From: an uncultured cyanobacterium
Lineage (GTDB): Bacteria; Cyanobacteriota; Vampirovibrionia; Vampirovibrionales; JAGQHJ01
Assembly: GCA_937922745.1 (NCBI GenBank)
Contig: CALAJO010000005.1
Span: forward strand, 1,991-65,990
Direction: 5' to 3'
Length of the DNA stretch: 64,000 nucleotides
Part shown: positions 4,227-59,690 of the stretch, in pieces
How positions within the stretch are numbered: position 1 is the stretch's first letter
Layout of the letters: each line of letters begins with the position of its first letter
Translations under genes and position numbers: made by a program
Notes under the pieces: model-generated
Database searches by the model: none
The model's input: only the letters and a program-made list of their open reading frames with translations
What the model was told of the DNA's origin: nothing

Positions 4227-4237
4227 CGAGTGTTCAA

Positions 4238-4309
4238 GGCGACATGGCCAAGTGGTAAGGCAGGAGTCTGCAAAACTCCCACTCCCCAGTTCGAATCTGG
4301 GTGTCGCCT
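4238..4309 (+). tRNA. tRNA-Cys (anticodon GCA)
   Basis: Cloverleaf traced by hand: acceptor GGCGACA/TGTCGCC, anticodon stem GGAGT/ACTCC with loop CTGCAAA (anticodon GCA), T-arm CCCAG-TTCGAATC-CTGGG. CCA is not encoded. Confidence 0.9.
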
Positions 4310-4494
4310 TTCTTCTCTCCCAAAGGGGTTCAGTCTTTCACATTTTACTTTCAACAGTACTTTGTTGCATTCATGTAGCAACAGCGTTCAATATTTCTCA
4401 ATAATAAATAAACCACACTGTCCGGCCAAACAAGATGAATGGGTAAGGGCAAAACAAGAACTGAATTGACTGGCACTGCGGCTATCTTTTGGCT

Positions 4495-44419: not shown

Positions 44420-44830
44420 CTTCGTACTGCTCCGTTTGTTTCTAAATACAATTATAGAGGGTAACGAAACTCTTGTCTAGCTGTATACGAGCGTTTTACG
44501 GGCTTTTGCTAAGGATCCTTAACAAATCCGTGAATCATGCATCCGTAGTTTATAACGGTTTGATATCGCTGGTGATGTCTCACAATTCATTTTGTTTTGT
44601 GCTATATTAGGTTGGCTCAATCAAATGGGCCAAACGCCTTCAACGATTTTTTTATGGATTCAAACTTGATCCGGGCAACCGGATGAAGCCATCGAAGAAG
44701 GTTACCGGCTGGTGCATGGCGTAAGGCCAACGAACCATGTCAGGGCGGGAACGCAGCAGCATTAAGTTGTACCCTGCGGGTATGTGTCCATCCGGTAACT
44801 GGAGATGGTTTTGTCTGTCAATCTGGTCTT

Positions 44831-48481: not shown

Positions 48482-48690
48482 AAACAAGCATGATTACTGC
48501 TTCAACAGACAGATACCTATAGAATCCCATTAAGTTGAGGACAAAAATTTCTGCTGCAAATTCGCATATTTCTCCTTTAAGTTTTGCATTTTATATCCGA
48601 TGACGTCGATATCGTCCTGTTTCTCACGCCTAGAATGATCACAACAATGCCGAGAAATGTGGGCGAATCGTCAGCAAATTGGAAGATTCG

Positions 48691-50361
48691 ATGAAACGCA
48701 TTATTCTTTGTCTTACTTTGATTACCTTGTTATCCGGGTGTGGCTTACTGGGCAAGCCTTATCAAAATAATCCTTATATTCAGGAAATCGAGGCAGCCCT
48801 TGCCAAGCAAGATACCGTTAAGGCGATGAAAATGACAAAGGATGCGCCGCCAGAGCTGGCCCCCGTTATTACTTTGTGGCTGGAAGATAATGCAAACCGT
48901 CTTGAGCCGGTTTATTTATTTCTGCTGGCGGAACACAAATTCGCTCAGGGTAAGAAAGAAGAAGCGGCATCTTGGTTTATGGCAGGCAAAATCCGCTCGT
49001 TATATGACGCTTATCGTTGTACCGATTCGACTGCTCGCTCCGGTATTGCAATTGGCCCAATGCTTGCCCTTAAGACTGCGGAATATATAAATAATGATCA
49101 GAAGGCTGGATATCATGCCGCAAAACGGGCTTTAAAATGGGATGAAATGTATCCGCCGACCAATTCGCCTTTATGGATTTGTAATCATGGCATGATGGCC
49201 TTTAGTGGCCAGGTGACTTTAGAGCCCGAAAGCAAATGGCCTGAAATCAGGAACAAAATCCGGACTGCGATTGAAAAAGGGTTAGACAAGACCAAGGCCA
49301 GCCTCGACAAGATAGACAAGCTTCAGCAAGCAGGAGCAATCCGGGAGATTGGCAAAGCAAGAGTTTTCTCTGAAGTTTTTTATCTGTCGGATGGCCGGGT
49401 AGTAACGCCCTCTCAAAAGGGCTACCAGTTTATCTCCTTAAAGGATGGACATCTTGAAGATGAAATCCAGGCAGAGAAAGGGGGGTATGGCGCCACAAAA
49501 ATTCTGCTTCCGGATGACAAGCTATTGGTGATAGACGGCGAGCAGTGCCTTGCAAATCAAAGGCAGGTGCGCCTCATCGATTTCAGAACAAAAAATACGG
49601 TAACGGGAGGCCAATTAAATTCTTGCCGATATGCCCCTTCAGCAACCATTTTAAGTGACGGCAAAGTGCTAATTGTGGGCAGTCACAGCACAATATTTAA
49701 CAAAAAAACGAAAAAAATTGAAAAACTTGGCCCTGCCGCTACAAAAGCCGAGCTTTACAACCCTAAAACCAAAACATTTGCTTGGGGAGGGGCATTGCAC
49801 CTTCCTCGTTTCAAGCACGAAGCGCTTCGGCTTCCCAATGACGAAGTAGTTATTATCGGCGGCCATAAAGCAGGGATGCATCAGCCAGGCGTAACACAAG
49901 AGCTGAGAACGGTAGAAATATACAATCCTAAAACCCGCCAATTCCGTACCGCCGGAGAAACGATTCTGGCGCATGAGGATAGACATCGCCTCACCTTGTT
50001 GAAAGATGGAAAGGTGCTTATTACCGGTGGGATGATGCGAAACGGCATTACCTCCTCGCCAGCAAAAAGTGCAGAAATCTATGATCCAAAAACGGGTCAA
50101 TCCAAGATAATACCCAACTCCCAAATTTCAAATTACCATCAGACCGCACTGCTGTCCGATGGGCAGGTATTTATTGCCGAGAGCTTAGGGAGTGCCGGTA
50201 GCATCTCGTTTAAACGGTTTAACCCGGCAACAATGGAATTGGCCACGCTGGCTGAGCTTCCTGTTTCGGCACCATCATTGAAGATGGCCTTACACTCCGA
50301 CAAGCAAGCATATCTATTAACAGGATCCACCATATATATGCTGGATCCCAGTGCAATGTAG
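48691..50361 (+). CDS. lipoprotein with Kelch-type beta-propeller repeats
   Basis: Lipobox LLSGC. Repeated hydrophobic-GG Kelch blades (KVLIVGSHS, VVIIGGHKAG, KVLITGGMM). AT-rich. Confidence 0.65.
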   Translation: MKRIILCLTLITLLSGCGLLGKPYQNNPYIQEIEAALAKQDTVKAMKMTKDAPPELAPVITLWLEDNANRLEPVYLFLLAEHKFAQGKKEEAASWFMAGKIRSLYDAYRCTDSTARSGIAIGPMLALKTAEYINNDQKAGYHAAKRALKWDEMYPPTNSPLWICNHGMMAFSGQVTLEPESKWPEIRNKIRTAIEKGLDKTKASLDKIDKLQQAGAIREIGKARVFSEVFYLSDGRVVTPSQKGYQFISLKDGHLEDEIQAEKGGYGATKILLPDDKLLVIDGEQCLANQRQVRLIDFRTKNTVTGGQLNSCRYAPSATILSDGKVLIVGSHSTIFNKKTKKIEKLGPAATKAELYNPKTKTFAWGGALHLPRFKHEALRLPNDEVVIIGGHKAGMHQPGVTQELRTVEIYNPKTRQFRTAGETILAHEDRHRLTLLKDGKVLITGGMMRNGITSSPAKSAEIYDPKTGQSKIIPNSQISNYHQTALLSDGQVFIAESLGSAGSISFKRFNPATMELATLAELPVSAPSLKMALHSDKQAYLLTGSTIYMLDPSAM

Positions 50362-50499
50362 CTGCTGAGCATTATACTTTAGTCTAGTTTTTAAAGCGTT
50401 CACTCCAACGGCTGAAACTTTTCCCGATCGAATTCGTCCATTAGGGTATATCTCAATGGGCGTGAATGTTTTGAATAATCCATGAAAGGGATTTGCTGT

Positions 50500-51009
50500 A
50501 TGCTGCGTTTGTTGAAGTTGAGTGGCGCTAACAAGTTTCTACCAACGGTTTTGGCGGTTACCATGCTGGGGTCGGGCTTAATGCCTGCGGCCGAAGCGGC
50601 TTATAAAAAAGTTTACGATCATCGAACCGGACAGTATTATTACGTGGATGACTCGCTGGAATCCAAGGCGCGACGTGCCTGGACAAACCCTATGGTTAAA
50701 CAGGCGGTGGTTGGCGCCGCAGTTGGAGCTGGCGCAGGGCTCCTGTCCGACAGAAGCTCCGTGTTGAAAGGGGCTGCCGTAGGGGCTGCGACCGGGGTGG
50801 GCACTGGCCTGGTCGATCGGAGCAATTATATGGCCGATAAGCCCTTGTTGAGAACGGCTGTTAAAGGGGCAGCCATTGGTACGGGCGCGGGCGCCGTAAC
50901 CGGCAAAGGATTGGTTAAAGGCGCTGTAGTGGGCGCTGGGGCCGGCGCGGGCCTGCATTACCTGAAAGACTATATGAACCGAAACAACTACGACCGCCGC
51001 TGGTGGTAA
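50500..51009 (+). CDS. secreted glycine-zipper (YMGG/17-kDa-antigen-like) protein ending in RRWW
   Basis: Signal peptide followed by repeated GAAVGAGAG glycine-zipper segments. Confidence 0.6.
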   Translation: MLRLLKLSGANKFLPTVLAVTMLGSGLMPAAEAAYKKVYDHRTGQYYYVDDSLESKARRAWTNPMVKQAVVGAAVGAGAGLLSDRSSVLKGAAVGAATGVGTGLVDRSNYMADKPLLRTAVKGAAIGTGAGAVTGKGLVKGAVVGAGAGAGLHYLKDYMNRNNYDRRWW

Positions 51010-51044
51010 GTATGATATTGAATTGAGGCTGAAAGGGAAAAACG

Positions 51045-51353
51045 ATGTTGAAATCATTGCTGAAAGTGGGTTTAGCCAGTGTTTTGGCATTTACGGCATT
51101 AACTCCGGTCATTACATACGCGGATGACGATTGCCGGGATAACCGACACAGGGGTTACAAAAACGAGTGGCGCAATGATCGTCGCCAGGCCCATCGCGAA
51201 TGGCGGCAGGATAGACGCGAAGCCCGTGAGGCTTGGCGAGAGGAGCGCCGCGATGCCCAACGTGCATGGCGCGACGCCAACCGAAACTGGGCCCGGAACA
51301 ATGGCTGGCATAATGCGTCTTGGCAAGGGTATCACTCTCGCCCGTGGTGGTAA
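51045..51353 (+). CDS. secreted protein with 11-residue Arg/Glu/Trp-rich tandem repeats, ends RPWW
   Basis: Signal peptide ...VITYADDD, then repeats of the type DRRQAHREWRQ. Paralog of the next gene. Confidence 0.55.
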   Translation: MLKSLLKVGLASVLAFTALTPVITYADDDCRDNRHRGYKNEWRNDRRQAHREWRQDRREAREAWREERRDAQRAWRDANRNWARNNGWHNASWQGYHSRPWW

Positions 51354-51650
51354 TGCAACCCATAGGATGACAAATGATGTTAAAAACGATTTTAAAGATT
51401 AGTTTGGCAAGCGTTATTACCTTTATGGCGCTGCCGCCCATGGTGTCTTATGCGGATAATGACAATCATTGGAAAGACCGCCGCAAAGCCCACAAGGAAT
51501 GGCAGAAGGATCGCCGTGAGGCCCATCGGGAATGGGAAAAGAACCAGCGCGAAGCCTGGCGCGAGCGTCAGAAAGATCGCCGGGAAGCCCGTAAGGATTG
51601 GGAGCGGGATCGGCGTGAGGCGCATAGGTACCAGGATAGCCTGTATCAAA
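51130..51650 (+). repeat. 33-nt periodic coding repeats (11-aa Arg/Glu/Trp units) in two adjacent paralogous genes
   Basis: Repeats DRRQAHREWRQ/DRREAREAWRE in the first gene and KDRRKAHKEWQ/KDRREAHREWE and more in the second. Confidence 0.5.
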
Positions 51651-52060
51651 ACCAATGGCGGCAATATAACCGCAACTTCAACGATCCTTTTTATCGCAAT
51701 TCTTCCTGGGGCGGCCCGCCAGGCTATAACTGGCAGGACTATCGATTTAATGACCGACACCGCGCCATTTTATACGATATTTTCTCCCGCCGTCAGCCCG
51801 GCTATTATAACGATCTTCAATGGCAAGCCATCCAGCAACACCGGAACCTCCCGCCCGGCATTCGCAAAAAGCTGGCGCGAGGTGGGCAACTGCCACCCGG
51901 TATGCGCAACCAGTTCGTAAATGTAAATAACGATATCTTTGGGGCGTTGGGTTTGCCCTACAGAAATGATTTGAGACTTGGGGTTTATGGCCGTGACGCC
52001 ATTCTCTATAACATAGACAACGGGATTATTTTGGATATCCTGCAAAATGTTGTAAGATAA
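51374..52060 (+). CDS. secreted protein with 11-residue Arg/Glu/Trp repeats plus a weakly RcnB-like C-terminal domain
   Basis: Signal peptide ...MVSYADND. Five repeats KDRREAHREWE. C-terminus has LPPGMRNQ...ILYNIDNGIILDIL, reminiscent of the periplasmic RcnB/YohN family. Confidence 0.55.
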   Translation: MMLKTILKISLASVITFMALPPMVSYADNDNHWKDRRKAHKEWQKDRREAHREWEKNQREAWRERQKDRREARKDWERDRREAHRYQDSLYQNQWRQYNRNFNDPFYRNSSWGGPPGYNWQDYRFNDRHRAILYDIFSRRQPGYYNDLQWQAIQQHRNLPPGIRKKLARGGQLPPGMRNQFVNVNNDIFGALGLPYRNDLRLGVYGRDAILYNIDNGIILDILQNVVR

Positions 52061-52068
52061 AAGATATC

Positions 52069-52105
52069 GAAACTGTATTTTTTACAGTTTCCTTTCATTT
52101 TTTTC
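52069..52105 (+). terminator. intrinsic terminator (9-bp perfect hairpin GAAACTGTA-ttttt-TACAGTTTC plus T-run)
   Basis: Lies immediately after the stop at 52060 and is followed by CTTTCATTTTTTTC. Confidence 0.6.
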
Positions 52106-52260: not shown

Positions 52261-54912
52261 ATGGAAAAAACTTTCGTGAGAACAGTTGAGCCTGCTGTAA
52301 AGGCCTCGATTCAAGATTTGCTGAAGAAGGGGCAAAGGGAACTTCGCAAAAAGCTGATTAGCCACGTTTCCATCCAGGAAACGCTGGATACGTTAATCCG
52401 AAATGTTGAAGAGATTGAACCGGACATGCTTGGCTCGGTGCTGCTGTTAGACGGTGAAAACAGAGCCCTCATCCATTGCAGCGCCCCCAGCCTGCCACAG
52501 GAATATTGCGAAGCCATCAACGGGATTAAAATCGGCCCCGCTGTAGGCTCATGCGGAACAGCCGCCCATACGGGCGAATGCGTCATTGTTGAGGATATTG
52601 AAACCCATCCTTACTGGGAGCCTTTCAAGGCATACGCGTTAAAGCATGGGCTTCGCGCTTGCTGGTCGCAACCGATTCTCTCGGCAGACGATAAGATTTT
52701 GGGCACATTCGCCCTATATTACAAACAGGTCCGCACGCCTTCGCAGGCGGAGAAAGAGTTGCTTGAGGCGGCCGCCGAGCTTGCCAGCATTGCAATCGAG
52801 TGGAAACAGTTGGAAGATGAGCTATCACAAAGCACCAAAAGCCTGGCTTATCAGACGGATCTGATTAAGACCATCACCAATAACGCTACGTCTGCCCTGT
52901 TTATGATGGATACAAAAGGGCATTGCACGTTTATGAACACGGCTGCCGAGCGGATGACCGGCTACACGCTGGATGAAATAGCCAACAAGCCTTTGCATAA
53001 TTGCATCCATCATACCCACCCGGATGGGACGCCTTACCCGCTGAAGGAATGCCCGATTGATAGGGCATTGCCGGAGCGAAACCAGGTTCGCGCGCACGAG
53101 GATATTTTTGTACGCAAGGACGGGACGTTCTTCCCGGTATTGTGCGCCGCGGAACCGATTTTTGAGAATGGCGAGCCCGTGGGCACCGTGGTGGAAGTGC
53201 GCGATATTACGCGAGAAAAAGAAGCCCAGAAGGCTTTGACACAATCCCACCGGGAGACGCAGCTTGCAAACCTGTTGCTGGATAGCATGAGCCAGGTGCA
53301 GCAGAAGTTCATTTCCGGGGCCGACCAGTGGACGCTATGGGATGAGTTTGTGAAGGATATGCTGGCGCTGACCAGCAGCGAGTACGGCTATATTGGGGAA
53401 GTCCTCTACAAGGAAAACGGTGATCCCTACCTGGTCTTTCGTGGGCTTACCAACATTGCATGGAACCCTGAAACCCAAAAACTCTTCGAAGGCCTTCGCA
53501 CCCGCGGGCTGGAGTTCCATAATATGGACAACCTCTATGGTGCAGGCCTTGTGGATAACGGCTCTGTTGTCATCTCCAATAACCCGGCCCAGGATCCGCG
53601 CAAGGGCGGCTTGCCGCATGGGCACCCTGCACTTAATGCCTTTATCGGCCTCCCGATTTACGGGCGCGATGGCAAGCTGATTGGCCAGATTGGCCTTTCC
53701 AACCGGCCCGGCGGGTTTGATGAATCCATTGCCGAGTATTTAAAACCGTTGCTCATTACCTGTAGCTATATTCTGGAAGCCTATCGCAATATCGAGTCAC
53801 GCAAAAAGGCAGAGCAAGCCATTGTCGAAAGCGAGGAGCGTTTCCGCGTCATGGCCGAGGCGGCACCGGTCAAAATCTGGATGTTGAATGAAGCGGGCAA
53901 GCTGACTTATTGCAACCAGAAGACCACGGATTTCTTCGGCTATACACTTGCGGAGCTAAGCGACATGGGTTGGGCGGATTTAACCCATCCCGATGATCAA
54001 GAGAAACTGATCGAGATTATTCAAACGTCTTTTAACAGCCAGCAGCCCTACGAGGCGGAGATACGCTATAAACGTTTTGACGGAGAGTACCGCTGGCTAT
54101 TGCTCTCCGCCATTCCCCGGTTTGAGTCGGATCATTTTCTGGGGTTTGTGGGCAGCGCCCTGGATATTACCGAGCGTCGCCAGATGCGCGAAGAGTTGGA
54201 ACGCCTGGTTAAAGAACGGACAGCCCAGTTAACGGCCGTTAACAAGGAGCTGGAAGCCTTTGCCTACTCTGTTTCCCACGATTTGCGCGCCCCGTTGAGA
54301 ACCATTGACGGCTTTAGCCAGGCGGTCCGGGAAATGTACGCGGATAAACTGGATAACCGCGGCCAGGATTACCTGACCCGGATTTACAAGGGCACCCAGC
54401 AAATGGGGCAGCTTATTGACGATATGCTTAATCTCTCCCGGCTAACGCGTGGCGAGTTGCATGTTGAGAAAGGGCTGGATTTAAGCCGGATTGCCAAAGA
54501 AATCCTCGAAGAGTCACAGCGGCATCATCCGGAGCGCACTGTGGCAGTTGAAGTTGAGGATAACCTCATCGCCGACGCGGACCGTAACCTGGCCGCCGTA
54601 TTGCTGAGAAACCTGCTGGAGAATGCCTGGAAGTTCACTTCCAAAAAATCTTCGGCGGCAATTAAAGTCGGATCGTTGATGCAAGATGGTAAAACGGTGT
54701 TTTACGTTCAGGATAACGGCGCAGGCTTTAACATGGATTACCAGGACAAGCTGTTTGGCGCATTTCAGCGTTTGCATGACACGGATGAGTTCCCAGGGAC
54801 AGGGGTTGGGCTGGCAACGGTGCAGCGCATCGTTAATCGCCATGGTGGTAAAATTTGGGCTGAAGGGCGCGTTGATGAAGGCGCGACTTTTTATTTTACG
54901 TTGAGTGCGTAG
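52261..54912 (+). CDS. multi-sensor histidine kinase (GAF-PAS-GAF-PAS-HisKA-HATPase_c)
   Basis: H-box VSHDLRAPLRTI plus N and G boxes. Two GAF-like and two PAS-like segments. Confidence 0.85.
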   Translation: MEKTFVRTVEPAVKASIQDLLKKGQRELRKKLISHVSIQETLDTLIRNVEEIEPDMLGSVLLLDGENRALIHCSAPSLPQEYCEAINGIKIGPAVGSCGTAAHTGECVIVEDIETHPYWEPFKAYALKHGLRACWSQPILSADDKILGTFALYYKQVRTPSQAEKELLEAAAELASIAIEWKQLEDELSQSTKSLAYQTDLIKTITNNATSALFMMDTKGHCTFMNTAAERMTGYTLDEIANKPLHNCIHHTHPDGTPYPLKECPIDRALPERNQVRAHEDIFVRKDGTFFPVLCAAEPIFENGEPVGTVVEVRDITREKEAQKALTQSHRETQLANLLLDSMSQVQQKFISGADQWTLWDEFVKDMLALTSSEYGYIGEVLYKENGDPYLVFRGLTNIAWNPETQKLFEGLRTRGLEFHNMDNLYGAGLVDNGSVVISNNPAQDPRKGGLPHGHPALNAFIGLPIYGRDGKLIGQIGLSNRPGGFDESIAEYLKPLLITCSYILEAYRNIESRKKAEQAIVESEERFRVMAEAAPVKIWMLNEAGKLTYCNQKTTDFFGYTLAELSDMGWADLTHPDDQEKLIEIIQTSFNSQQPYEAEIRYKRFDGEYRWLLLSAIPRFESDHFLGFVGSALDITERRQMREELERLVKERTAQLTAVNKELEAFAYSVSHDLRAPLRTIDGFSQAVREMYADKLDNRGQDYLTRIYKGTQQMGQLIDDMLNLSRLTRGELHVEKGLDLSRIAKEILEESQRHHPERTVAVEVEDNLIADADRNLAAVLLRNLLENAWKFTSKKSSAAIKVGSLMQDGKTVFYVQDNGAGFNMDYQDKLFGAFQRLHDTDEFPGTGVGLATVQRIVNRHGGKIWAEGRVDEGATFYFTLSA

Positions 54913-54939: not shown

Positions 54940-55404
54940 ATGGACAGCGTGAACACCAAAACCATATTACTGGTGGAAGATAACCCCAACGATGCCGAAT
55001 TGACGCAACTGGCCTTTGAGCGCAATAACATCATTAACCCGGTGGTAATTGCGAAAAATGGCGTGGAAGCGCTGGATTATCTCTTTGGGACGGGGATGTA
55101 CGAAGGACGGAATGTTTATGATCAGCCCCCGGTCATTATCCTGGATCTAAAGCTGCCGAAGGTCGATGGCCTGGAAGTGCTGCGCCGTCTGCGGGCCGAT
55201 GAGCGCACCCGCCTGATCCCGGTTGTGGTTCTCACCACCTCTAACGAGGAGAAGGATTTGATTGAGGCCTATAACCTCGGCACCAACGCCTACGTCCGTA
55301 AGCCGGTGGATTTCACCGAATTCTCCGAAGCCGTAAAGAAGCTGGGTATGTTTTGGCTATTGCTTAACGAAATTTGCGGTACCTGCAAGCCCAGCGGAGA
55401 ATAA
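54940..55404 (+). CDS. single-domain response regulator (CheY-like receiver)
   Basis: LLVEDNPND...ILDLKLP...VVLTTS...KP. Confidence 0.85.
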   Translation: MDSVNTKTILLVEDNPNDAELTQLAFERNNIINPVVIAKNGVEALDYLFGTGMYEGRNVYDQPPVIILDLKLPKVDGLEVLRRLRADERTRLIPVVVLTTSNEEKDLIEAYNLGTNAYVRKPVDFTEFSEAVKKLGMFWLLLNEICGTCKPSGE

Positions 55405-55756: not shown

Positions 55757-56077
55757 GTGGCTCAAAAGCGCAATAATCCAGATCAAAATTCCAAGCAAAA
55801 GATGACCGTGGCAGAAGCTGGGCGTAAAGGCGGTAAAAAAACAGCCCAAACCCATGGCGCTGATTTCTACAAAAGCATTGGTAAAAAAGGCGGCACTTCC
55901 CGCAAGGAGGCCCTGGGTCACCAAGGCTATGTGGCAATGGGACAAAAAGGCGGTGAAGTGGTGAAACAAAAATATGGCCCGGAATTTTACCAGGAAATTG
56001 GACGCAAAGGGGGCGAGGCTCGCTCGAAAGCCAGTTTAAAAACTTCAGATACCGAGGAAAGCCTTGCACAATCATAG
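55757..56077 (+). CDS. KGG-repeat general stress protein (YciG/GsiB-like)
   Basis: Four KGG stress repeats (GRKGGKK, GKKGGTS, GQKGGEV, GRKGGEA). GTG start with RBS AAGGGAG. Confidence 0.7.
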   Translation: MAQKRNNPDQNSKQKMTVAEAGRKGGKKTAQTHGADFYKSIGKKGGTSRKEALGHQGYVAMGQKGGEVVKQKYGPEFYQEIGRKGGEARSKASLKTSDTEESLAQS

Positions 56078-56104: not shown

Positions 56105-56329
56105 ATGCCCTATCAGCGCATTACCGAATTACCGGATCGGGTTAAAGACCATTTGCCCCGGCATGCCCAGGAAATTTATAAGGAAGCCTTTAACCATGCC
56201 TGGGACGAATACAAGGATCCGGATGATCGTCGGGGAGACGACTCTCGCGAAGAGGTGTCCCACAAAGTCGCCTGGTCTGCCGTAAAGCGAAAGTACGAGA
56301 AAGAGGGCGATAACTGGGTTCAAAAATAA
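56105..56329 (+). CDS. chaB: ChaB-family protein
   Basis: MPY...LP..V...LP.HAQ.IYKEAFN.AWD.Y...........E..HKVAWSAVK pattern. RBS GGAGGTGA. Confidence 0.75.
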   Translation: MPYQRITELPDRVKDHLPRHAQEIYKEAFNHAWDEYKDPDDRRGDDSREEVSHKVAWSAVKRKYEKEGDNWVQK

Positions 56330-59123: not shown

Positions 59124-59690
59124 ATGGTTTGGGATGATCCAAGTCGTAAAATCGTTTGTGGTATTTTCCATTCGGATCGGGATGTCGAGAAATTGCTTTC
59201 CCGACTGGAAGACAGAGGCTTTGGCGATACCGACGTCAGCATGATGATGTCGGATAAAACCCGGGAGCGCTATCCGGAGTTGTCCAAATCGTCCAAGTTG
59301 CCGGAAGGGGCTGCAACTGGGGCATTAACCGGCGGCTTGCTGGGCGGGCTCATTGGCGGCCTTACCATGGCCGGCAGCGTCTTGATTCCAGGGGCGGGGC
59401 TGCTGGTTGCAGGGCCCATCGTGGGCGCACTAACCGGTGGTGCGGTAGGCACCTCTACCGGCGGGCTGATTGGCGCACTCATCGGCGCCGGCATACCGGA
59501 GCATGAAGCCAAGCACTACGAGGAAAGCCTGAAAAACGAAGGCAACATCCTGGTGGTGGCGCATGTGGATAAGGAAGAAGTTCAGGAAGTGCGCGATCTC
59601 TTCCGCTCCAACGGCGCGGATAACATTGACGTGCGACTGGAAGACCCCAGCGCACGGCGCGAAACCCCTTTATATTCCCGCGATATTTAA
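59124..59690 (+). CDS. general stress protein 17M/YflT-like with central glycine-zipper membrane segment
   Basis: Strong RBS AAAGAGGAG. Two YflT-like half-domains (KIVCGIFHSDRDVEKLLSRLEDRGF; NILVVAHVDKEEVQEVRDLFRSNGA) flank a Gly-zipper hydrophobic stretch. Confidence 0.6.
   Translation: MVWDDPSRKIVCGIFHSDRDVEKLLSRLEDRGFGDTDVSMMMSDKTRERYPELSKSSKLPEGAATGALTGGLLGGLIGGLTMAGSVLIPGAGLLVAGPIVGALTGGAVGTSTGGLIGALIGAGIPEHEAKHYEESLKNEGNILVVAHVDKEEVQEVRDLFRSNGADNIDVRLEDPSARRETPLYSRDI

Follow-up and report, generated by a model that had tools for sequence, protein, structure and literature searches.

We analyzed a 64,000-nucleotide stretch of contig CALAJO010000005.1 from an uncultured cyanobacterium of the Vampirovibrionales (the window, to which all positions refer) and found that three consecutive plus-strand genes, here called G1, G2, and G3, encode small exported proteins and that two of these proteins carry an 11-residue (hendecad) repeat. 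This hendecad module is genuine and has not been described before; it is rare and has a scattered phylogenetic distribution. G1 (positions 50500 to 51009) encodes a glycine-zipper (Gly-zipper) protein of 169 amino acids (aa). G2 (51045 to 51353; 102 aa) is a repeat-only paralog of G3. G3 (51374 to 52060; 228 aa) is composed of a signal peptide, five hendecads, a linker rich in aromatic residues and Asn, and a C-terminal domain of the CigR type. Together they are probably an operon of small exported envelope proteins. The reading that we favor, tentatively and at somewhat less than even chances, is that G1, G2, and G3 form an envelope-stress module in which the repeat helix acts as an interaction or oligomerization arm.

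Read in register, the five units of G3 (51467 to 51631) are HWKDRRKAHKE, WQKDRREAHRE, WEKNQREAWRE, RQKDRREARKD, and WERDRREAHRY. Those of G2 (51168 to 51299) are WRNDRRQAHRE, WRQDRREAREA, WREERRDAQRA, and WRDANRNWARN. Identity at a lag of 11 residues was 0.36 in G2 and 0.38 in G3 (shuffle z scores, 5.7 and 7.2, respectively), and none of 5,000 shuffles reached the observed value. A preliminary description of this DNA had reported a strong 11-residue periodicity, five to six repeat copies, and a 33-nucleotide (nt) periodicity in the DNA, and we found all three. The lag-33 identity of the DNA was 0.45 in G2 and 0.48 in G3. We counted about five copies in G3, marked by Ala at residues 39, 50, 61, 72, and 83, and three to four good copies plus one to two degenerate ones in G2. 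The string DRREAHREW, which had been put forward as the repeat itself, occurs only once. Tandem Repeats Finder reported no repeat in the DNA, and therefore the periodicity is at the protein level and the duplication is old.

To define the module, we required at least three in-register 11-mers with D-R-R-E-A at positions 4 to 8 and an aromatic residue, in most cases Trp, at position 1; the array had to come straight after a signal peptide. By this rule G3 has five units and G2 has three, and the same rule picks out 17 other proteins (alignment A2). The 59 units of these 17 proteins gave the consensus W-E-K-D-R-R-E-A-x-R-E (W, 56%; E, 76%; K, 88%; D, 90%; R, 93%; R, 100%; E, 92%; A, 85%; x; R/K, 98%; E/D, 98%); because the units were anchored on positions 4 to 8, the percentages at those positions are inflated, and positions 1 to 3 and 9 to 11 were free.

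The repeat matched no Pfam or NCBIfam model above threshold, and a literature search found no paper containing the repeat strings; the family had not been recognized in the preliminary description either. Subthreshold matches to SART-1, RNase E, RNase Y, and YidC were discarded as low-complexity noise from biased composition. A word-indexed search of 5.8 billion clusters returned three matches for G3 and five for G2. An exhaustive HMMER scan of 1.84 billion cluster representatives found 160 proteins with an E value of ≤1e-3 for G3; in about 20 of them the match involves the repeat region, and the nearest nonself relative is 37% identical. Among approximately 15 billion proteins, G2 and G3 are singleton clusters. 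We also used a degenerate DNA pattern for DRREAxxxWxxDRREA as a strict motif search. Across 185,579 species genomes it occurred at 3 loci (two from Acidobacteriota and one from Planctomycetota), and across 241 million metagenome records at 10. The strict motif of G3 itself was absent from all GTDB species representatives, which indicates that sampling of the source lineage is very poor.

The repeat region had been expected to form a long charged helix, and AlphaFold2 indeed predicts a continuous helix of about 70 residues in both G3 and G2. In the model of G3 (alignment A1, 50 sequences; mean predicted local distance difference test [pLDDT] score, 84), residues 32 to 102 are a single unbroken helix (pLDDT, 90 to 98), which runs on past the repeats to position 51679. 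Residues 107 to 115 are disordered, and the C-terminal domain is compact, with short helices and three strands (pLDDT, ~90). In G2, residues 28 to 96 are modeled as one helix with a core pLDDT of 97 to 98; a Foldseek search of the PDB with this helix gave no match. The repeat is thus predicted to extend for about 100 Å as a single straight helix of some 70 residues. Since 11 residues equal three helical turns, its stripes would be straight and untwisted. On an 11/3 helix, all five Ala residues of G3 fall at 327° and the in-register Trp residues at 0°. The consensus positions fall at 0° (W1), 33° (R5), 65° (x9), 98° (E2), 131° (R6), 164° (R10), 196° (K3), 229° (E7), 262° (E11), 295° (D4), and 327° (A8). 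This gives a basic stripe (K3, R6, and R10), an adjoining acidic stripe (D4, E7, and E11), and a narrow Trp/Ala stripe (W1 and A8, flanked by R5).

Here and in other organisms, the module is always N-terminal and directly behind a signal peptide. It stands alone in G2, P0026, P0054, P0139, and P0104, the last of which sits on a 626-bp contig. It is followed by a C-terminal Gly-zipper in P0003, P0093, L003, L005, L007, and L011; by an RcnB domain in P0002 (PF11776, 4.5e-20), P0030 (2.8e-13), P0126, and L009; by a CigR-like domain in G3 and P0015; and by a GYRDGF-rich tail in P0041, L002, and L006. One further repeat protein (L013:688-1242; RDRREARRDWRRDRREARRDF) has a BA14K-like, Cys-containing tail, which we recognized by eye.

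G1 has a signal peptide, a YKKVYDxxxxQYYYVDD motif, two Gly-zipper blocks, and an RRWW end. Its GxxxGxxxG runs lie at 50692 to 50967, and motif-scan matches were found at 50770 to 50808 and 50866 to 50904. Residues 71 to 110 match the Pfam family Gly-zipper_YMGG (PF13441) with 33.9 bits, above the cutoff of 28.9 (E value, 2.6e-8), and the assignment as a Gly-zipper protein therefore holds. We found 90 homologs of G1. Those of the long form are 50 to 57% identical to it and share the N-terminal motif YKRVYD...QYxYVPE. The relatives that carry names are metagenome-assembled genomes of Vampirovibrionales/Melainabacteria, and one homolog was automatically named SlyB by the Joint Genome Institute.

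Homologs of G1 are also found next to CigR-like genes. Downstream of the G1 homolog P0154, at a distance of 40 nt, lies P0008, which ranks fourth among the hits of G3. After another G1 homolog, P0158, a secreted CigR-like protein of 217 aa with the LPPG motif comes next, again within about 40 nt. This pairing occurs in two independent metagenomic organisms, and the Gly-zipper and CigR-like genes are a recurrent, conserved gene pair. The locus in the window is this pair with two additions: a hendecad helix occupies the variable N-terminal part of G3, and the repeat-only G2 stands between the two genes. In other organisms this repeat is joined directly to Gly-zippers, and these fusions independently support a functional link. 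Upstream of the pair lies an HSP20 gene in locus L017 and a MerR regulator gene in locus L015. The neighborhoods of the CigR-like proteins P0005 and P0015 contain no Gly-zipper gene.

The C-terminal domain of G3 (51719 to 52057) has FxxxxRxxLxD helices, the segment LPPGIRKKLARGGQLPPG, and a three-stranded end. The NCBIfam model for CigR (NF040487) matched G3 with an E value of 8.3e-14 and 52.1 bits, under the curated cutoff of 78 bits, and the match is limited to profile positions 76 to 147 of 148 (G3 residues 152 to 227). In a phmmer comparison with the C-terminal domain of CigR (PDB 4ew5), LPPGIxKxLARGxxLPPG was aligned (E value, 1.2e-4), and 4ew5 was also the top Foldseek match of the G3 model (E value, 5.7e-4; probability, 1.0; TMt, 0.62). 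Approximately 140 uncharacterized secreted proteins share the extended domain (G3 residues 116 to 228), for which there is no Pfam model.

The same domain had previously been called weakly RcnB-like. The resemblance is at the profile level only: hhalign of alignment A1 against alignment A3, which holds only four RcnB sequences, gave a probability of 87.5% and an E value of 3.6e-6 for this single comparison over 59 columns (G3 residues 167 to 226). The Pfam RcnB model (PF11776) gave no hit on G3 at an E value of <1, though it strongly matches P0002 and P0030, and the Foldseek match of G3 to 2l1s, which we take to be an RcnB homolog, was weak (E value, 0.33). We concluded that the domain is accurately named CigR type and that the earlier wording is fair for a remote likeness. 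Separately, we observed that the secreted protein P0007 (451 aa) contains three or four tandem CigR-like units of the form LP...VN..LGLP....RVGV.GDDV.L.D...G.VLD, which shows that a CigR-like domain can be repeated within one chain.

All three proteins have signal-peptide-like N termini, as read from the sequence (MLK..., a hydrophobic core, and then TYA/DDD, SYA/DND, or AEA/A, with the slash marking the break), in accord with their first description as signal-peptide proteins. TYA/DDD and SYA/DND are the predicted cleavage sites of the two repeat proteins, and the 11-residue periodicity lies after them. G2 and G3 are tandem paralogs, as first proposed; BLASTP aligned G2 with G3 residues 2 to 114 at 42% identity (E value, 1e-23). 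Their signal peptides had been called near-identical. We found that the signal-peptide regions are identical at 17 of 29 residues (59%) and that 11 of these 17 residues are encoded by different codons. The codon differences point to an old duplication that was apparently maintained by selection, and not to near-identical copies.

The RRWW end of G1 (51001 to 51009) and the RPWW end of G2 (51345 to 51353) are both present as reported, and no other gene in the window ends in an in-frame WW-stop. We rejected a conserved C-terminal WW for the G1 family because none of the 15 homologs read ends in this way; two of them have KKWWDGQ or RKWWND near the end. None of the other hendecad-repeat proteins read has a WW terminus. 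The WW ends of G1 and G2 may be coincidental or may mark a tag specific to the lineage.

The layout of the three open reading frames agrees with the consecutive plus-strand genes of the preliminary description. The gap between G1 and G2 is 35 nt and that between G2 and G3 is 20 nt, and each gene has a Shine-Dalgarno-like AAGGGA or AGGA 7 to 10 nt upstream. The G1 reading frame can also be read from 50482 (175 aa). The start at Met7 (50500) is the more likely one, because the Shine-Dalgarno-like AAGGGA of G1 sits before Met7 and because a public protein collection contains the 169-aa product and not the 175-aa version. A terminator-like element begins 8 nt past the G3 stop (52069 to 52105). It is composed of a hairpin at 52069 to 52091 with a 9-bp stem that includes three G-C pairs (ΔG, -10.7 kcal/mol; shuffle z score, -5.2), followed by a T-rich run, and it matches the terminator noted earlier. 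The next gene begins 200 nt further on. Given the short gaps, the Shine-Dalgarno-like elements, and the hairpin with its T-rich run, the locus looks like one transcription unit with an intrinsic terminator.

The locus had also been called an AT-rich patch, and this was not borne out. The GC contents of G1, G2, and G3 are 0.566, 0.563, and 0.502, respectively, and 0.53 overall, versus 0.521 for the window, and the only AT-rich part is the intergenic stretch 3' of G3 (0.40 to 0.42). With a composition near the window average, we dropped the idea of a foreign island. PADLOC found no defense-system match at the locus.

We next describe the surrounding genes. Upstream, ending 138 nt before G1, is a gene for a 560-aa lipoprotein (48679 to 50361; LLSGC lipobox) with a Kelch/glyoxal-oxidase-like beta-propeller, weakly similar to the radical copper oxidase GlxA. 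Directly downstream of G3 are genes for an 883-aa GAF/PAS histidine kinase (52261 to 54912) and a 154-aa receiver-only response regulator (54940 to 55404), which could regulate the neighboring stress genes. Behind these, 3.7 to 7 kb downstream of the locus, are genes for a LEA_5/KGG hydrophilin (55757 to 56077; Pfam, 1.1e-13, above the cutoff), ChaB (56105 to 56329; Pfam, 2.6e-24), and a YflT/DUF1269-like protein with a Gly-rich membrane segment (59124 to 59690; match below the cutoff); a PAS protein is also encoded there. The neighborhood is stress flavored, and as evidence for the locus this is circumstantial. Elsewhere in the window, a bacterial small signal recognition particle RNA (44703 to 44800; 49.9 bits) and a tRNA-Cys(GCA) (4237 to 4310) are the only Rfam matches.

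According to the envelope-stress reading, the core of the locus would be the pair of a long-form Gly-zipper protein, G1, and a secreted CigR-type protein, G3. G1 would associate with the membrane via its GxxxG Gly-zipper helices. In the source lineage, the hendecad repeat would fill the variable charged region between the G3 signal peptide and the CigR-type domain, and a duplication of the N-terminal half of G3, from the signal peptide through the repeats to the aromatic linker, would have given rise to the free-standing G2. The striped helix would then be an extended interaction arm that pairs with like helices, G2 with G3, by a basic stripe against an acidic stripe, by large Trp against small Ala, or by both. 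G3 may dock by its CigR-type domain, and the arms may cluster or position small envelope domains beside the Gly-zipper partner within an envelope stress response. We infer co-transcription, the interaction of G1 with G3, helix-helix pairing, and the role in stress. Two preprints (bioRxiv 10.64898/2025.12.22.696046 and 10.64898/2026.06.08.730324) describe SlyB and YfgH, which are Gly-zipper lipoproteins, as stress factors of the outer membrane.

Several points weigh against this reading. G1 is not a SlyB-like lipoprotein: no Cys follows the hydrophobic core of its signal region (...GLMPAAEAAYKK), and it therefore lacks a lipobox. The pairing with a CigR-like gene was found at only two of four other long-form G1 loci, being absent in L018 and L019, and at none of three short-form loci. 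No neighboring genes are common to the repeat loci of other phyla. A high pLDDT is common for long charged helices in AlphaFold2 and is no proof of stability in solution, and the prediction is of a monomer, which cannot test helix pairing. A Trp/Ala stripe with charged d and e positions would be a poor coiled-coil core. Finally, the link with the stress genes is one of position.

The striped helix might instead lie on a surface. The repeat would then be a shielding hydrophilin, like the 11-mers of LEA group 3 proteins, apolipoprotein, and alpha-synuclein, lying flat on the membrane or on a polyanionic polymer (lipopolysaccharide phosphates or peptidoglycan), with Trp in the interface and Arg on phosphates, and would protect during drying or osmotic stress. 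We regard this as unlikely. The exact 11-residue periodicity gives an untwisted stripe, and the repeat is rich in Trp and Arg, the classical interfacial and phosphate-binding residues. It also has a net positive charge (+6 to +13), which makes polyanion binding possible as far as the sequence goes, and a LEA_5/KGG hydrophilin and other stress genes are nearby. However, the apolar face is made of W and A alone and spans only about 60°, with a mean hydrophobicity of -1.04 and a hydrophobic moment of 0.4 to 0.6. The basic stripe (131° to 196° from Trp) is opposite the Trp stripe and does not flank it, and the family consensus is close to charge neutral. We thus rejected a class A amphipathic helix, whose 11-residue periodicity the repeat does share, because of the narrow apolar face and because the basic residues are not at its edges.

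A helix of this kind could also be a passive rigid spacer, an ER/K-type single alpha-helix (SAH) that keeps the C-terminal domain a set distance away, with G2 as a decaying duplicate. The isolated long helix is predicted with very high AlphaFold2 confidence, and its sequence is highly charged. However, we found no enrichment of oppositely charged pairs at i,i+3 and i,i+4 and rejected an ER/K SAH identity on this ground. The number of attractive minus repulsive pairs was -7 in G3 (z score against shuffles, -0.95) and -18 in G2 (z score, -3.5), and in the consensus the attractive and repulsive pairs balance. Furthermore, no N-terminal anchor is left once the signal peptide is cleaved, so there is nothing for a spacer to space from. 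The intact signal peptide of G2, with the codon pattern of purifying selection described above, and the repeat-only proteins of other lineages argue against a decaying duplicate. We hold the spacer to be distinctly improbable.

Still less probable, in our estimate, is a role in periplasmic metal handling, in which G3, with G2 as an accessory, would bind Ni, Co, or Cu, as is reported for E. coli RcnB, via the His, Asp, and Glu residues of the repeat and an RcnB-like C terminus and would buffer metals or modulate their efflux. The references of PMC13371490 name RcnB as a periplasmic protein that serves Ni/Co homeostasis and binds Cu. In favor of metal handling are the remote RcnB likeness of G3 residues 167 to 226, the fusion of the same repeat to bona fide RcnB domains in P0002 and P0030, the four His residues in the repeat region of G2 and of G3, and ChaB, of a cation transport regulator family, encoded 4 kb downstream. 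Metal binding by the repeat had been suggested from the sequence, and we found it unsupported because the His of AHREW in G2 and G3 sits at position 9, which is variable in the 59 units of the other proteins (A, 25%; R, 24%; E, 14%; I, 8%; W, 8%); no His is conserved in the family. The family closest to the C-terminal domain is CigR, for which, to our knowledge, no metal function has been reported. No transporter gene lies next to the locus, be it rcnA, CDF, RND, or P-type ATPase, and an Arg-rich helix with a net positive charge (+9) would be unfavorable for cations. Least of all do we expect G2 to be a secreted Arg/Trp-rich antimicrobial or bacteriocin-like peptide, a very improbable reading that draws on its signal peptide and on the 19 Arg and 9 Trp residues of the mature protein (~76 aa; net charge, +6) but is countered by the 8 Asp and 6 Glu residues that dilute the cationic character, by the lack of adjacent immunity, export, or maturation genes and of a PADLOC hit, and by the joining of the same module to periplasmic housekeeping-type domains in other organisms.

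Small envelope proteins of the CigR/RcnB-like and Gly-zipper kinds are widespread, and little is known of how they work. The locus shows a Gly-zipper gene and a CigR-like gene as a conserved pair in Melainabacteria-like organisms, and the rare helical repeat is found again, N-terminal to these same domains, in Acidobacteriota, Planctomycetota, and others. The hypothesis that arises is that Gly-zipper, RcnB, and CigR domains cooperate in the periplasm, with the repeat as their interaction arm. A more far-reaching version, which we consider quite unlikely, is that the hendecad is a hitherto unrecognized self-associating helix with charge stripes and a Trp ladder that builds extended periplasmic assemblies (e.g., G2/G3 hetero-oligomers docked on G1), that it serves as a portable scaffold for Gly-zipper, RcnB, CigR, and BA14K domains in several phyla, and that the WW of G1 and G2 is a lineage-specific sorting or recognition tag. 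If this were true, the self-associating hendecad helix would be a new structural principle that organizes the periplasm under stress. The value of the present analysis is in annotation and in the generation of hypotheses, and it opens no new field; a clean new repeat family can be defined for domain databases.

Among known systems, G3 is most like CigR, the Salmonella inner-membrane protein. In each, the domain is preceded by an N-terminal export or anchor sequence and by a charged region that varies, and G3 residues ~152 to 227 align with the double LPPGIxKxLxRGxxLPPG and the terminal three-stranded element of CigR. Unlike CigR, G3 scores below the NCBIfam cutoff, has an extra helical subdomain (residues 116 to 155) in common with its ~140 uncharacterized relatives, and carries the hendecad helix. 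Salmonella CigR has been linked with MgtC (PMC11825808), and its reported function is that of a membrane-anchored antagonist of MgtC. The link with MgtC is not transferable to G3. The source organism is not an enterobacterium, and G3 has no mgtC or Salmonella pathogenicity island 3 context; no mgtC-like gene was found in the called neighborhood of the locus. RcnB/YohN (PF11776) resembles G3 as a small periplasmic domain that ends in a G-x-hydrophobic strand pattern, and RcnB-domain proteins bear the same N-terminal repeat. It differs in the matches given above and in that no rcnA-like efflux gene is near G3. Spy, CpxP, and ZraP are, like G2 and G3, small helical periplasmic stress proteins. 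The possibility, raised at the outset, that the repeat belongs to this family was not borne out, since we found no LTxxQ motif in mature G2 or G3 and no Pfam hit at an E value of <1.

G1 resembles the YMGG/OmpA-type glycine zippers (PF13441 and PF13436; SlyB/YfgH-like), which are likewise small, exported, and built with tandem GxxxG helices, and it is set apart from SlyB/YfgH-type lipoproteins by the missing lipobox Cys and by its distinct N-terminal motif. The hendecad module shares its exact periodicity and straight stripes with the 11-residue helical repeats of LEA group 3 proteins, apolipoprotein A-I, alpha-synuclein, and right-handed coiled coils. In contrast to these, it has no broad apolar face, a W/A core, and charged d and e positions, and it has no sequence similarity to them. 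With ER/K SAH domains it shares a long, highly charged helix that is predicted in isolation; unlike in those domains, like charges are segregated into stripes, without the i,i+4 opposite-charge pattern, and a Trp is conserved. Taken together, these comparisons place the locus not as a new kind of system but as a variant within known, poorly understood small envelope families to which an undescribed repeat module has been added.

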